Assembly (NCBI GenBank): GCA_937967325.1
Contig: CALBSQ010000053.1
Coordinates: 255 to 64,254, forward strand
DNA: 64,000 bases
From: an uncultured Chloroflexota bacterium
GTDB lineage: Bacteria; Chloroflexota; UBA4733
Direction of reading: 5' to 3'
A program made the translations under genes and the position numbers. Under the pieces are notes generated by a model, which did not search any database, was not told where the DNA came from, and saw nothing but the letters and a program-made list of their open reading frames with translations. Below are positions 37,368-42,174 of this stretch, in pieces (the first letter of the stretch is position 1; each line of letters starts with the position of its first letter).

Positions 37368-37530
37368 GGCGTCCCTCCGCGTACATGCCCGGCTCCATAG
37401 TATCTACAATCGACCCAACCAGCGGGTTCCCCGATGCCCCGATGTCCAGCGGGTCACCAAGGCGGACCCTCATGTGGGTGTGACGCGATTCGTTACCGCT
37501 TGCGCATGTCCTGTGGCGCCGCGTCCGCCG

Positions 37531-37670
37531 GCTGCCCGACGCTGAACCGGCGGGCTCACAGTTTCAACCCTGCTGCAGCAGGCTAAGCTCGCCGACCGGT
37601 TGCGCTTGAAACGCTAGCCGCCTTCAGGCGGGTTGAAATTGTTAGCCTGCCGGTTCAGCGGCAGGCGCGC
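37531..37670. repeat. ~140-bp imperfect nested palindrome in a ~930-bp noncoding gap
   Basis: Concentric inverted repeats centred near 37600. GCTGAACCGG (37541-50) pairs with CCGGTTCAGC (37651-60). TTTCAACCC (37562-70) pairs with GGGTTGAAA (37631-39). Each arm also holds a local hairpin (CTGCTGCAGCAG; CCGCCTTCAGGCGG). Confidence 0.5.
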
Positions 37671-38096
37671 GTCGCAGGCAATGCCCCATGGTTTGCGCCA
37701 GTGGTAACGCCTCGGCAGCGCCCCTCACATTGCTCGTGGGAGGCGGTTCTCCGCGTCGTGCTACACTCCGGAGGAGTTGGCCCGTGCCCTTGGCGGGCCG
37801 TGGGACGGGAAGACGGAGACACCGGCACGTTTGAGCGACGCGTCTGCATGCCCCCAGCTCGTGTCGATCTGTTGGGCTATCAGGGTGCTGCTCGTCCCGG
37901 TCCCGCTGAGTCACCATCGCTTACCTCTGCTGCAAGGAAAGCGCGTCTCCCAGCCGGTCGGCAAGCAGCGATTCGCTCGTCCCAGCAGTGGTAGACAACC
38001 TCTCCGTTCTCCGCGACTCCTCGCTTCCAACGATCACCACCCCGTCCATTCGGGCCCGCGCCGACGATATGCATATAGAATAGGAGGCCACTGCAC

Positions 38097-38297
38097 ATGG
38101 CGGATCAGCGGATCAGCAGCCGATGCCATCCGCGGATGCGCATGCTACGCTCCTACCGGCCTCCGGAGGTCGAGGCCGCGGGCGTGCCGGCGGTGGTGGT
38201 CGAGCACGAGAGCCTGCTGGACGGCGCCCGGTTCGAGGCCGTCTATGCTCGGGACAGCCTCCGGCTGCTCGGCATCCACGGTGCGCCGAAGGAGTAG
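38097..38297 (+). CDS. small hypothetical protein translationally coupled to the ABC exporter pair
   Basis: AGGAGG lies 9 nt upstream of ATG 38097. GC3-rich 66-codon frame. The stop lies 3 nt before the exporter GTG 38301. An AT-rich patch (GATATGCATATAGAAT) lies upstream. No family was recognised. Confidence 0.5.
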   Translation: MADQRISSRCHPRMRMLRSYRPPEVEAAGVPAVVVEHESLLDGARFEAVYARDSLRLLGIHGAPKE

Positions 38298-38300
38298 CCG

Positions 38301-40394
38301 GTGCTTCGGTCACTGCGCCGGCGCCACGACGACCCGCGCCTGGCGCTGGCGCTGCTGCTGCCAAGGGTGAGCGCGGGCCTCACGCTCTCGCTGACGCTGC
38401 TCACCGTGCTCGGCGTGCTGGTGGGGATGCTGTTCACGCTGGCTTCCGGCGCCCTCGTCGGCAGCGTCCCGGCGGCGGTCAGCGGCGGTTTCAGCTCGCC
38501 TGCCGGCGAGAGACTGATCGCCGCGCTCGTCGCGGTCGTCGCCCTCTTCGTCCTGCGACAGTCGCTGGACCCGCTAGAGGACTTGCTGACCACGACGCTC
38601 GGTCGCCAGGTGGAAGGGAACCTCCAGTTGCGCGCCATGCGCGCCGCCCTCGGCCCCGCCGGCATCGCCCATCTGGAGGACCCCGCCGTGGTCGACCTGC
38701 TCTCCCGCGCCAGGGGCGTGGCGACGGGCCGCTATACTCCCAGCCAGGCGGTGCGCGGCCTGTTCAACTTGCTGCTCAAGCTCGCCCAGACTGTCGTCTC
38801 CACGGCGCTCATCTGGCGTTACGAGCGCTGGTGGCTGGCGCTGGGGCTTATGGCGGTGCTGGTCGTCACTCGCACCATCGCCCGGCGCAACGTGCTGCAA
38901 GAAGTGGCGGTCGCCACCGGCGCCACCCCGGTGCATCGGCGCACCGAGTACTTCCTGGGGCTCGCCTTGGAGCCTGGAGCGGCCAAGGAGACGCGGGTAT
39001 TCGGGCTGGAGCAGTGGATCGTGGGCCGTTTTCGGGCGCACTGGCTGGAGGCGATGCAGCAGGTCTGGACCGAGCGCGCCCGGTCGGCGCGGACGCTGGC
39101 GCCGTGGGTGATCGCGGTGGTGTTCGCCTGCGTGCTGGCGGCCATCGGGCTGACCGGCCGCGACGCCGCCACTGGCCGCATCGGCCTTGCCGCCCTCACC
39201 ATCGCCGCGCAGTCGATCGTGACGCTCGCCGCCTACCTATTCAGCATCAACCTCCCCGAGCTCTGGCTGGAGCACGGGGCGACCGCGGTGCCGGCGGTGC
39301 TGGAGTTGGAGGGAACCTCACCCCCGGCCCCTGCGCGGCGAGGGCGATTGTTCGTCATTCGCGAGGATGACGCCGACGGAAAGAGCAGGGCGTATAGCAA
39401 TACGCCCCTACCGGTATCGGCGTCCTCTGGTAGGGGCGTATTGCTATACGCCCCGGTCACCGCACCGGCCCAATCTCGTCCAGGCCCAACAGCATCTTTC
39501 GCCGATGAAGGGCGGGGGGTGAGGTCCCCTCCCGCCATCCGCTTCGAGAACGTCAACTTCTGCTACCCGGGCAGCGACTGCAACGTCTTCTCGGGGCTGG
39601 ACCTCATCATCCCGGCGGGGCGTTCGCTAGCGATCGTGGGCGCCAACGGGGCCGGCAAGACGACCCTGATCAAGCTGCTCTGCCGCCTCTACGACACCAC
39701 GGCGGGCCGGATCGTCGCGGACGGGGTGGATCTCCGCGAGGTTGATGCGGCGCGCTGGCGGCAGCATGTCGCCGTGATCTTCCAGGACTTCCTGCGCTAC
39801 AAGCTGACGGCCGCCGAGAACGTTGGCTTCGGCGCTCCAGCGCTGGCCGGGGACCGTGCGGCTCTGGAGAGGGCCGCAAACCGGGCGGGCGCCGATGAGA
39901 TCATCGCGGCGCTGCCGCACGGCTGGGACACCGTGCTGTCGCGGGAGTACGAGCGCGGCGCGGACCTCTCCGGCGGCCAGTGGCAGCGCATCGCCTTGGC
40001 GCGGGCGTTGTTCGCCGTCGAGGCTGGCGCCGGGGTGCTGGTGCTGGACGAGCCGACCGCCAACCTGGACGTGCGCGCGGAGGCTGAGCTGTTCGATCGC
40101 TTCCTGGAGCTGACCGCGGGGCTCACCACCATCCTGATCTCCCACCGCTTCCCTAGCGTCCGCCGTGCCGACGCCATCTGCGTGCTGGAGGACGGCCGCG
40201 TGGCGGAGCGCGGCACGCACGAGGAGCTGCTGGCTGCCGGCGGCCGGTACGCCCGGCTGTTCCGCTTGCAGGCGGCGCGCTTCACGGACACTCCACCGGA
40301 TGCCGTGGAGGAAGAGGCAGACCGTGCTGCCGACGCGAAGCCCGGGGCGGCTCGCGCCAGCGAGGATGGGTCGGGGGAGACGACCGGTGGGTAA
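38301..40394 (+). CDS. ABC exporter, fused permease/ATPase (type I exporter half-transporter)
   Basis: Six-TM N-domain. Walker A GANGAGKTTLIKLL, signature LSGGQWQRIALARAL, Walker B VLVLDEPTANLD. The interdomain linker is unusually long (see the element at 39307-39531). Confidence 0.9.
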   Translation: MLRSLRRRHDDPRLALALLLPRVSAGLTLSLTLLTVLGVLVGMLFTLASGALVGSVPAAVSGGFSSPAGERLIAALVAVVALFVLRQSLDPLEDLLTTTLGRQVEGNLQLRAMRAALGPAGIAHLEDPAVVDLLSRARGVATGRYTPSQAVRGLFNLLLKLAQTVVSTALIWRYERWWLALGLMAVLVVTRTIARRNVLQEVAVATGATPVHRRTEYFLGLALEPGAAKETRVFGLEQWIVGRFRAHWLEAMQQVWTERARSARTLAPWVIAVVFACVLAAIGLTGRDAATGRIGLAALTIAAQSIVTLAAYLFSINLPELWLEHGATAVPAVLELEGTSPPAPARRGRLFVIREDDADGKSRAYSNTPLPVSASSGRGVLLYAPVTAPAQSRPGPTASFADEGRGVRSPPAIRFENVNFCYPGSDCNVFSGLDLIIPAGRSLAIVGANGAGKTTLIKLLCRLYDTTAGRIVADGVDLREVDAARWRQHVAVIFQDFLRYKLTAAENVGFGAPALAGDRAALERAANRAGADEIIAALPHGWDTVLSREYERGADLSGGQWQRIALARALFAVEAGAGVLVLDEPTANLDVRAEAELFDRFLELTAGLTTILISHRFPSVRRADAICVLEDGRVAERGTHEELLAAGGRYARLFRLQAARFTDTPPDAVEEEADRAADAKPGAARASEDGSGETTGG
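39307..39531. mobile_element. 225-bp nested palindromic MITE/RPE-like insertion, in frame within the exporter gene
   Basis: Terminal inverted repeats GGAGGGAACCTCACCCCC (39307-24) and GGGGGTGAGGTCCCCTCC (39514-31) match at 17/18. A perfect 25-bp inner inverted repeat (39387-39411 with 39428-39452) has a 16-nt loop. All repeats are concentric on about 39419. Length is 75 codons. Confidence 0.6.
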
Positions 40395-42174
40395 GCATCT
40401 GCATGCTGTCGCTCTTATCTTGGGCACGGCCTTCCGCGCCGATCCGCGGCGGGCCGTGATTGTCGTCGTGCGGTCACTGGTCAGCTCATTCCTCTTCGCG
40501 ACCATGCCCTTCTGGCTGAAGGTGCTAGCCAACGGCGCGGTCGCCCATAGCACGCGGCAGGCGCTCCTGGCCGCCGGCGCTGCCGCGGCGTCGGTTACCG
40601 TGACGGTCTTCCTGGGCTGGATCGGGACGAACGCCACGCAGCTGCTCCAGGAGCGCACCAACCTCTCGATCGACGAGCAGTTGGCAAGGCTCAGCCTGGA
40701 GGTCCCCGGACTGGAGCACTTCGAGCGGCCCGACTACGCCAACCAGATAGCGCTGCTGCGGGAACAGCGCGGCGCACTGGCGGGGGCGCTCGACGCCATC
40801 ACCACAACGCTGCAAGCGGTGGTGCTGTGGACGACGACCCTGGCGCTGCTGGTGAGCATCCACCCCTTACTGCTGCTCATGCCGGCGTTCGGGCTGGCGA
40901 CGCTTTGGAGCGAAGAGCGCGCGCAGCGGATCCAGCAGCGCACCAGCGAAGTCACCGCCGAGCGCGGCCGGACGCTGCGGTACCTCTTCGACCTCGCCAC
41001 GGATGCCCAGGCGGGCAAGGAGCTCCGCGTCTTCGGACTCAGCGGCGAGATCGTCGGGCGCTACGAACAGTTGTGGCGGGAGATCGACCGCGAGCGCCGT
41101 CGCGCCGGGCTGCAGGCGGTCCTGCTGACGGCGCCCGGCTGGTTGCTCTTCACCATCGGCTACGCCGGAGCGATCGTCGTCGCCGTCTGGCTGGCGGTCT
41201 ACGGCCAGACTTCAGTCGGCGCAGTGCTGATGACACTGACCCTCGCCGCCGAGGTACACCGCTACGTGGGGACGGCGACCTACCTGTTCTCCTGGCTGCT
41301 GGGCGCGCTGGCGGCGGTGGGCCGGCTGCTCTGGTTGATGGACTACGCCGCATCGGCGCGGAAGGTCTCCGGCGATCCTCAGCCCGTGCCGGGGAGGCTC
41401 GATCGGGGCATCCGGCTGGAACACGTGTCCTTCTGCTATCCGGGCGCCGGGACCGAGGTGCTCGGCGACGTCAACCTCGACCTGCCCGCCGGGTCGACCG
41501 TGGCGCTGGTGGGCGAGAACGGCGCCGGCAAGACCACGCTCGTCAAGCTGCTCTGCGGCCTCTACCAGCCCACCTCGGGCCGGATCACGGTGGATGACGT
41601 GGAACTCCATCGGTTCGACGTCGCCACCTGGCGTGCCCAAACCGCGGCCGCCTTCCAAGACTTTGCCCGCTTCGAGCTCCTCGCGCGCGAGACGGTGGGC
41701 GTGGGCGACCTGGCCAGGATCGAAGATCCGGCGGCAGTCGGGATTGCGCTCCGGCGCGCCGGAGCCGAGGAGCTACCGGCGGCGCTGGCCAATGGGCTGG
41801 AGACGCAGCTCGGCAAGGACTGGGAGGGCGGCGTCGAGCTTTCCGGCGGGCAGTGGCAGAAGCTGGCGCTCGGGCGGGCGCTGCTGCGGGAACAGCCGCT
41901 CCTGCTGATTCTGGACGAGCCCACCGCCAGCCTGGACGCGCAGACCGAGCACGCGCTGTTCGAGCGATACGCCGAAGCAACCCATCGAAGCGCCGCCGCC
42001 AGCGGCGCGATCACGATCCTCGTGTCCCACCGCTTCTCCACGATGCGGATGGCCGACTTGATCGTGGTACTGGACCACGGAAGGGTAACGGAGGTCGGTA
42101 GCCACCGCGAGCTGCTGGCGCGCCGCGGGCTGTACGCCGAGCTGTATGAGCTGCAAGCGGGGCAGTACCGGTAG
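40387..42174 (+). CDS. ABC exporter, fused permease/ATPase (partner half-transporter)
   Basis: GTG 40387 overlaps the upstream stop (GTGGGTAA). Walker A GENGAGKTTLVKLL, signature LSGGQWQKLALGRAL, Walker B LLILDEPTASLD. Confidence 0.9.
   Translation: MGKHLHAVALILGTAFRADPRRAVIVVVRSLVSSFLFATMPFWLKVLANGAVAHSTRQALLAAGAAAASVTVTVFLGWIGTNATQLLQERTNLSIDEQLARLSLEVPGLEHFERPDYANQIALLREQRGALAGALDAITTTLQAVVLWTTTLALLVSIHPLLLLMPAFGLATLWSEERAQRIQQRTSEVTAERGRTLRYLFDLATDAQAGKELRVFGLSGEIVGRYEQLWREIDRERRRAGLQAVLLTAPGWLLFTIGYAGAIVVAVWLAVYGQTSVGAVLMTLTLAAEVHRYVGTATYLFSWLLGALAAVGRLLWLMDYAASARKVSGDPQPVPGRLDRGIRLEHVSFCYPGAGTEVLGDVNLDLPAGSTVALVGENGAGKTTLVKLLCGLYQPTSGRITVDDVELHRFDVATWRAQTAAAFQDFARFELLARETVGVGDLARIEDPAAVGIALRRAGAEELPAALANGLETQLGKDWEGGVELSGGQWQKLALGRALLREQPLLLILDEPTASLDAQTEHALFERYAEATHRSAAASGAITILVSHRFSTMRMADLIVVLDHGRVTEVGSHRELLARRGLYAELYELQAGQYR

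Follow-up and report, generated by a model that had tools for sequence, protein, structure and literature searches.

Repetitive extragenic palindromes (REPs) that carry a GTAG tag are associated with a group of small HUH-Y1 enzymes known as REP-associated tyrosine transposases (RAYTs, or TnpA_REP proteins). TnpA_REP subclass 2.4 occurs abundantly in Cyanobacteria and Bacteroidetes and is scattered across other phyla; the stem base of its REPs consists of three G-C pairs, and these REPs occur in 'double-foot' GT[AG]G...C[TC]AC forms and, as a hallmark, are found inserted in frame within tnpA_REP genes (PMC6006769). Here we describe a 225-nt nested palindrome located in frame within an ABC exporter gene of an uncultured Chloroflexota bacterium, on a 64,000-nucleotide stretch of contig CALBSQ010000053.1 (hereafter the window). 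Judged by sequence, two inverted copies of a GTAG-tagged REP, of the type that belongs to RAYT/TnpA_REP subclass 2.4 (Bertels group 4), make up the core of this element.

Two REPs with inward-facing GTAG tags are known as a 'TT' dimer; REPs and TT dimers have been found wholly inside open reading frames (ORFs) of known proteins, where dimers encode 20-30 and clusters 43-82 amino acids, and REP dimers nested in longer palindromes exist, e.g. GTAG-15 of A. variabilis (Di Nocera et al., PMC3733652). Insertions of this kind in modular proteins were argued to be neutral (PMC3733652). REPINs (REP doublets forming hairpins) consist of two inverted REPs in one long hairpin, which is thought to be replicated as a unit via a RAYT, and they form populations of tens to hundreds of near-identical copies per genome accompanied by a single-copy RAYT (Bertels & Rainey 2011, PMC3116915). 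We consider it likely that the palindrome in the exporter gene is REP-based, REPIN-like repeat DNA, or two nested repeat insertions, which was absorbed into the ORF and is carried there as a tolerated passenger.

A first-pass annotation of the window, made from the letters alone, had placed a 225-nt palindrome in an intact 697-codon exporter ORF. We recovered it at 39308-39532 rather than at 39307-39531; its first base is at codon position 3 and its length is a multiple of three. The termini of 18 bp (39308-39325 and 39515-39532) are reverse complementary at 17 of 18 positions, as had been described, with 0.08 matches expected by chance. The perfect 25-nt inverted repeat reported for the centre was present as well (GGGCGTATAGCAATACGCCCCTACC; 39388-39412 on the + strand and 39429-39453 on the - strand, with 16 nt between) and was never seen in shuffled sequences, and each of its arms indeed forms a hairpin of its own, with an 8-bp stem and a 4-nt loop. 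The symmetry axes, which had been said to coincide near 39419, are nearly coincident but lie at 39420.0 for the outer and 39420.5 for the inner arms. Gapped arm-to-arm alignment resolved three tiers: termini complementary at about 22 of 24 positions, a weak middle of 57 nt (z = 1.8) and the perfect core (25/25). RNA of the 225-nt stretch is predicted to fold into a single hairpin of -148.6 kcal/mol (z = -9.65, equalled by 0 of 200 shuffles), and the DNA fold reaches -75.6 kcal/mol (z = -7.9).

Amplification and assembly errors can create long perfect palindromes, and the element might on these grounds be a fold-back chimera or a mis-joined repeat. This has next to no probability. The palindrome is identical in three assemblies, comprising two JGI samples (99.98% over 11.7 kb) and an ENA assembly (99.80% identity over 17.7 kb) that differs at 28 other positions, and its presence in all of them indicates that it is not an artefact. 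In addition, the insertion leaves the reading frame intact, and the sequence on either side runs collinear with the orthologues.

Each of the two central arms reads GTAG-GGGCGTAT-N4-ATACGCCC, with the GTAG at 39430 (+) and 39411 (-), and the stem starts with GGG and ends with CCC, which gives a base of three G-C pairs. A scan with the pattern GGGCGTAT-N3-4-ATACGCCCCTAC, taking one genome per species, returned at least 119 stretches. The exact REP was found in at least 119 species representatives from more than 12 phyla, in unrelated flanks (L003-L121). Lineages bearing it include Bacteroidota, Cyanobacteria, Chloroflexota, Planctomycetota, the candidate phyla radiation (AT-rich genomes among them), Proteobacteria, Atribacterota and Zixibacteria. 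Many of the matches constitute the full 28-mer double-foot palindrome GTAGGGGCGTATTGCAATACGCCCCTAC, often with sibling variants close by, and the same REP was detected in 82 viral contigs of IMG/VR (L214-L293). The exact REP string gave no relevant match in the searchable literature, and it is not in the main text or the five text supplementary files of PMC3733652. Dense arrays of the REP were seen at L100, where they take up the whole 8-kb locus, and also at L051, L063 and L072; L100 holds more than 20 copies in both orientations at spacings of roughly 130 and 260 nt, resembling the clustered blocks of some GTAG families.

Four lineages have the REP next to or within a small HUH-Y1 gene: REPs flank the gene on both sides in L043, one lies upstream and one inside in L003, one lies downstream in L103, and one is located within the gene in L044. 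The encoded proteins match Pfam Y1_Tnp, and their best NCBIfam match is 'REP-associated tyrosine transposase' (REP_Tyr_transpos; E = 4e-22, 78.7 bits, slightly below the cut-off of 80). They carry NH[IMV]H, WQ and Y[IV]xNNP motifs, and the RAYTs adjoining this REP are mutually 43-49% identical. Taken with the GGG/CCC stem base, the existence of double-foot forms and the REPs in frame within transposase genes, these motifs match subclass 2.4 as published (PMC6006769). An in-frame REP translated as RGVLQYAPT is contained in the RAYT genes of L044 (5879-6391, - strand) and L003 (2799-3404, + strand). REP copy 2 of the window (GRGVLLYAP) is read in the same frame as these RAYT-internal REPs. Inspection of the REP sequence showed that five of its six frames are open, the closed one reading the TAG of GTAG; this scarcity of stops helps to explain the repeated in-frame occurrence of the family.

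Compared with the GTAG REPs of subclass 2.4 (Quentin et al. 2018, PMC6006769), the element shares the 5' GTAG tag, the GC-rich hairpin with three G-C base pairs and, in its relatives, the double-foot GTAG...CTAC forms and the scattered distribution over phyla including Cyanobacteria and Bacteroidota. Its REP also shares, in other lineages, a position beside or inside Y1 genes with NH[IFV]H/WQ/YIxNNP motifs, and it shares in-frame insertions that leave the ORF unbroken. It differs in that the insertion is in an ABC exporter gene and not in a transposase gene, that the REP forms an inverted dimer within a 225-nt palindrome, that neither a cognate RAYT nor another copy is present in the 64 kb, and that the host is a GC-rich, Chloroflexota-like metagenomic bacterium. 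Such a host is probable from a 762-aa molybdopterin enzyme, whose best named relatives (67-77% identity) come from Chloroflexi, Limnocylindria, Tepidiformaceae and Dehalococcoidia.

The composition of the insert sets it apart from the exporter gene. GC content at codon positions 1, 2 and 3 (GC1/2/3) is 0.66/0.68/0.62 within 39309-39530 as against 0.73/0.51/0.905 elsewhere in the gene, with no codon-position periodicity inside the insert. Sliding GC3 drops to 0.48-0.68 exactly across the palindrome and is back to 0.96 at 39516, and the local GC content dips to 0.58 at the element. Of the element's three sense frames just one is free of stops, and it is the one in use. On these sequence data the stretch is repeat-derived DNA foreign to the exporter gene, and we regard the codon-position composition as decisive.

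Almost all of the 120 listed exporter homologues are 590-655 amino acids long. We aligned the linker between the transmembrane domain (TMD) and the nucleotide-binding domain (NBD) in 22 of these 120, the orthologues being 47-65% identical to the exporter and the closest 61-65%. The interval between the anchors ...ELE and IRFE... spans 19-26 residues in orthologues of ordinary length versus 75 here. The absence of exactly 75 codons from orthologues had been proposed as a check: the insert is absent from them, but with 19-26 residues in its place the net excess in the exporter is about 50-56 codons (~54). A net gain of ~54 codons from 225 nt means that the native linker of ~21 residues must have been lost or overwritten.

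A homologous exporter of another organism (P0073 at L001, 48% identity) has one copy of the window's REP in the corresponding TMD-NBD linker; its insert forms no long hairpin (z = -0.3). As closer orthologues are without any insert, this REP is most simply explained by an independent event. In the same locus a hairpin of triplex-motif type, CCCCTCTCCC...GGGAGAGGGG-GGGGGGTGAGGGG, gives the last ~15 codons and the stop of P0073; the REP and this hairpin are located at L001 1858-1880 and 2838-2886. The linker of another homologue, P0105 (L002, 1472-1648), is ~35 amino acids longer and has a GC3 of 0.68 versus 0.89; neither a significant hairpin (z = +1.2) nor any recognisable repeat was found in it. 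The idea that the long linkers of P0105 and P0073 are long hairpins was rejected on these two z values.

An AlphaFold2 model of the exporter (mean pLDDT 77.7) is confident for the TMD helices, which reach to residue 339, and for the NBD, which starts at residue 412; the residues in between (340-411) are modelled as coil with a pLDDT of 29-46. The insert is thus predicted to be translated as a disordered surface loop that joins the last TMD helix and the NBD.

REPs affect mRNA stability and translation in E. coli. The palindrome might have been selected as a translational pause between TMD and NBD, as an mRNA-stability or RNase site that determines how much of each half-transporter is made relative to the other, or as a loop serving as a flexible tether or for interactions. 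The very stable hairpin (-148.6 kcal/mol), the fixation of the insert in identical form in all three assemblies and the independent hit on the same linker in L001 would fit such a role. We nevertheless hold a selected function to be very improbable, since all orthologues lack the insert, its composition is non-coding with no sign of codon adaptation, and the peptide is predicted to be disordered, its sole detectable relative being a 66-aa ORF (P0123). Moreover, neither a terminator-like nor a promoter-like site was found at the element, identity over 241 nt is uninformative at a strain divergence of 0.2%, and the L001 insert differs in structure.

We noticed P0123 in a full HMMER scan of 1.84 billion representatives, where it was the only genuine relative of the insertion peptide (66 aa, 54% identical over 53 residues); a profile search gave only P0123 itself. 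The match covers the REP dimer and both middle arms (left RLFVIRE...GKS and right VTAPAQ...ASF are conserved), and its extent indicates at least one copying event for a unit that measures ~175 nt or more (about 39345-39520). At the DNA level neither middle arm had a match among the fetched loci, of which there were more than 200. The 64-kb window holds no second copy of the element by exact, 3-mismatch or low-stringency BLAST searches, plasmid BLAST of the whole element gave no match, and Rfam returned nothing at gathering thresholds, a permissive scan yielding generic hairpins far below threshold.

The palindrome could also have grown in place, if the REP dimer alone was inserted and hairpin-templated strand switching (quasi-palindrome correction or inverted duplication) then copied one flank to form the outer part. 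The outer arms are far less perfect than the core, as this would predict; the G-T-S following ELE loosely resembles the x-x-T-S of several orthologues, and the left arm is weakly similar in DNA to the linker of P0002. Among about 40 adjacent REP pairs, the window pair is the most extreme (flank z = 4.5): simple TT dimers have no such arms, and only a few array-embedded pairs approach the window's score. However, a repeat unit known from unrelated contigs matches the left arm at 25/25 positions, GC3 is already low in the outermost codons, and both middle arms are kept in P0123 at another locus, which indicates that they travelled together with the REP dimer. We therefore view local growth as unlikely. 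A native-linker origin of the left arm was rejected separately, the weak similarity to P0002 linker DNA being outweighed by the 25/25 identity to the repeat unit.

The outer arms of the palindrome resemble a second kind of repeat. The TMECO class of intrastrand triplex motifs has the layout CCCTCTCCC-loop-GGGAGAGGG-NN-GGGGTGAGGG (Holder et al. 2015, PMC4666352). Like TMECO, the termini in the window carry the GGGGTGAGG / CCTCACCCC segment. We scanned metagenome contigs for GGAGGGRACCTCACCCCC and obtained 86 stretches, representing 68 distinct contexts. A rough estimate gives a few tens of chance matches, so the raw count of 86 is not evidence, whereas the shared downstream hairpin context is: in 24 of the 68 contexts the 18-mer directly precedes a polypyrimidine-armed hairpin of the CCCCTCTCC...GGAGAGGGG type, like the published consensus, and some of these units are closed by GGGGGTGAGG (L190, L154 and L142). 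Complete triplex-motif units with the same 18-mer are found at L190, L154, L142 and L156. The left outer arm is 25/25 identical to L175, reaching 7 nt beyond the search pattern, and is shared with L156 and L131.

L156 contains (2530-2713) a 184-nt element with perfect 45-bp arms, each of them a complete triplex-motif unit, and a predicted RNA fold of -153 kcal/mol. Its ends are the 18-mers of the window in the same inverted arrangement (GGGGGTGAGGTCCCCTCC being identical), and its interior of ~96 nt is unrelated. This suggests that triplex-motif units can serve as ends of elements resembling miniature inverted-repeat transposable elements (MITEs). Together, the L175 match and the L156 termini indicate that the outer arms, too, are repeat-derived. 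Taken overall, the building blocks of the palindrome turn up in hundreds of contigs unrelated to one another. The window element differs from TMECO in having only arms of the third-segment type (CCTCACCCCC / GGGGGTGAGG). No CCCTCTCC...GGAGAGGG polypyrimidine/polypurine hairpin is found in the window; GGCCCCT and AGGGCG remain, and the arms enclose 189 nt of other sequence. By sequence, then, the element is not a complete triplex-motif unit, as the inner hairpin is absent.

The first-pass annotation had compared the palindrome to a MITE or to a Rickettsia palindromic element (RPE). Taken literally, this describes a single 225-nt cut-and-paste element whose termini are the transposase-binding terminal inverted repeats and whose central hairpins are incidental. 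The 17/18 complementarity of the termini speaks for such an element, as do the same inverted termini on an element of similar size in L156 (184 nt) and the known presence of RPEs in frame in ORFs (PMC3733652). We found no target-site duplication, the flanks ...GGAGTT and CGCCAT... having no shared direct repeat, and the element is for that reason not a classical MITE. Conservation is best at the centre (25/25) and not at the ends (~22/24) or in the weak middle, a genuine GTAG REP, with a documented RAYT association, occupies the centre, and the termini usually accompany the CCCCTCTCC/GGAGAGGGG hairpin as short units instead of ending 200-nt elements. RPE-4 and RPE-6 are CGTC-tagged families (PMC3733652), i.e. 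members of a super-family with another tag. A single element of this type is accordingly quite unlikely.

The part of the earlier comparison that stands is the behaviour. Like RPEs, which are palindromic repeats of ~100-200 nt, the element is repeat-derived, lies in frame in a functional gene, here in the TMD-NBD linker, and would be translated as an extra surface peptide. It has no sequence relationship to RPEs and differs in host lineage and associated enzyme; with the wrong tag and the wrong lineage, it is not an RPE. The further suggestion that such in-frame behaviour is undescribed for high-GC genomes proved wrong. GTAG REPs are reported in Chloroflexi, the catalogue of intragenic GTAG REPs and REP dimers includes Opitutus, Thauera and Xanthomonas among others (PMC3733652), and in-frame REPs are documented in PMC6006769.

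We propose the following course of events for the absorption of REP-based repeat DNA into the exporter. HUH-Y1 enzymes of subclass 2.4 would recognise the REP and cut single-stranded DNA next to the GTAG-plus-hairpin. The REP dimer, imperfect arms of ~80 nt and ends of the triplex-motif class (CCTCACCCC/GGGGTGAGG) would make up a non-autonomous, REPIN-like unit that is at least 175 nt long and would be moved, in the form of single-stranded hairpin DNA, by a RAYT provided in trans. This unit, or its parts successively, may have entered the poorly conserved TMD-NBD linker, where the native ~21 residues were replaced or obliterated. The insert would have persisted because three conditions came together, namely a length that is a multiple of three, use of the only stop-free sense frame and a position in a disordered inter-domain loop. 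The additional ~54 residues would form a disordered surface loop between independently folding domains. Mobilisation in trans in the host genome, neutrality and the order of events are what we infer, and most likely the insert is a tolerated passenger without a selected function.

Several observations weigh against this proposal. The 64-kb window contains no RAYT gene and no other GTAG hairpin that would point to activity of the REP in this host genome. The difference between 225 nt and a net gain of ~54 codons requires a loss of the native linker that was not observed; with only 61-65% identity, the closest orthologue free of the insertion does not amount to a true empty site. For the larger unit one other copy was found, known as a translated 66-aa ORF only. 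The nested architecture is atypical for this REP: complementary flanks (12/20 or better) occurred in 0 of 38 single double-foot REPs, and the simple short-spacer TT dimers of L083 and L097 (14 nt between the tags in both) and of L117 have none either; the notion that REPs of this family usually lie within longer palindromes was rejected on these counts. Finally, neutrality is an assumption.

A bolder version would have the triplex-motif-capped TT-dimer unit of 175-225 nt as a distinct, still-active composite mobile element of GC-rich Chloroflexota that preferentially enters, or persists in, the inter-domain linkers of this exporter family (two independent hits, the window and L001), its very stable mRNA hairpin having been co-opted as a translation pause between TMD and NBD. 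We judge this distinctly improbable.

Relative to the intragenic GTAG/CGTC REPs (Di Nocera et al. 2013, PMC3733652), the window likewise has a REP dimer wholly inside an ORF and within a longer palindrome; what differs is the shell, a pair of triplex-motif-type arms. As in REPINs, two inverted REPs lie in one continuous predicted hairpin (25/25 arms 16 nt apart), and a diverged second copy of the unit exists (P0123); different from REPINs, the REPs are central with an 18-nt spacer and not near the ends. On this comparison of sequences the element is a clean example of a described phenomenon, the intragenic REP dimer, and not a new kind of element: all its components and its in-frame behaviour are already in the literature, though the nested architecture and the host gene are somewhat unusual.

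The exporter illustrates how inter-domain linkers can lengthen: selfish DNA of the REP type has been taken into a functional protein as a predicted disordered linker extension, which had not been pointed out before in this phylum or gene family. For annotation, the peptides RAYSNTPL, GRGVLLYAP, GRMQYAPT and RGVLQYAPT flag translated REPs, and tails of the GEG.GVR type flag triplex-motif repeats. REP-RAYT systems are generally described as lineage-specific and vertically inherited. One REP sequence that stays invariant over more than 12 phyla and also on viral contigs, while the neighbouring RAYTs are only 43-49% identical, would be unusual for such systems; we did not find it stated in the searchable literature. 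If true, it bears on whether REP/RAYT systems are strictly vertically inherited.

Table 1. Coordinates of the palindrome, its parts and the two half-transporter genes in the window.
Feature	Position	Strand	Basis or remark
Nested imperfect palindrome, 225 nt, repeat-derived insertion	39308..39532	.	Hairpin statistics, codon-position GC, orthologue alignment
Left outer arm, a repeat arm of the triplex-motif (TM) type: GGAGGGAACCTCACCCCC-GGCCCCT	39308..39332	+	Matches L175, L156, L131
Left middle arm, weakly complementary to 39454-39507	39333..39387	+	Gapped arm alignment, z = 1.8
REP copy 1: body GGGCGTAT-AGCA-ATACGCCC (39388-39407) and tag CTAC (39408-39411; GTAG on the - strand)	39388..39411	-	
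18-nt spacer separating the two inward-facing GTAG tags (tail-to-tail 'TT' dimer)	39412..39429	.	
REP copy 2: tag GTAG (39430-39433) and body GGGCGTAT-TGCT-ATACGCCC	39430..39453	+	Translated GRGVLLYAP
Right middle arm	39454..39507	+	Gapped arm alignment; translation VTAPAQ...ASF
Right outer arm, the TM-type arm as an inverted copy: AGGGCG-GGGGGTGAGGTCCCCTCC	39508..39532	+	
ABC half-transporter (TMD and NBD), 697 codons, intact across the insertion	38301..40394	+	ORF list, Pfam
Downstream partner half-transporter, 595 aa as called; short, ordinary linker	40387..42174	+	Gene call, Pfam, sequence

In the exporter, Pfam ABC_tran covers residues 432-587, homology of the NBD to MsbA/ABCB1 begins at residue ~400-413, and the homologue alignment shows no variation in Walker A, LSGGQ, Walker B and the H-loop. 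The ORF of the downstream half-transporter overlaps the exporter stop by 8 nt. A JGI-called ORF of 66 aa without Pfam domain (38097-38297, +) stops 3 nt short of the exporter's start codon and may encode a small leader or upstream peptide or be a spurious call. Upstream of the exporter operon, in an intergenic region of 930 nt, lies a second imperfect hairpin of ~245 nt (37478-37722). It has no similarity to the 225-nt element, to any fetched locus or to Rfam, and a relationship between the two palindromes was rejected for lack of sequence similarity. This hairpin has 100-nt arms that are 72% complementary and a predicted RNA fold of -149 kcal/mol (z = -7.5), and it is identical in both other assemblies.

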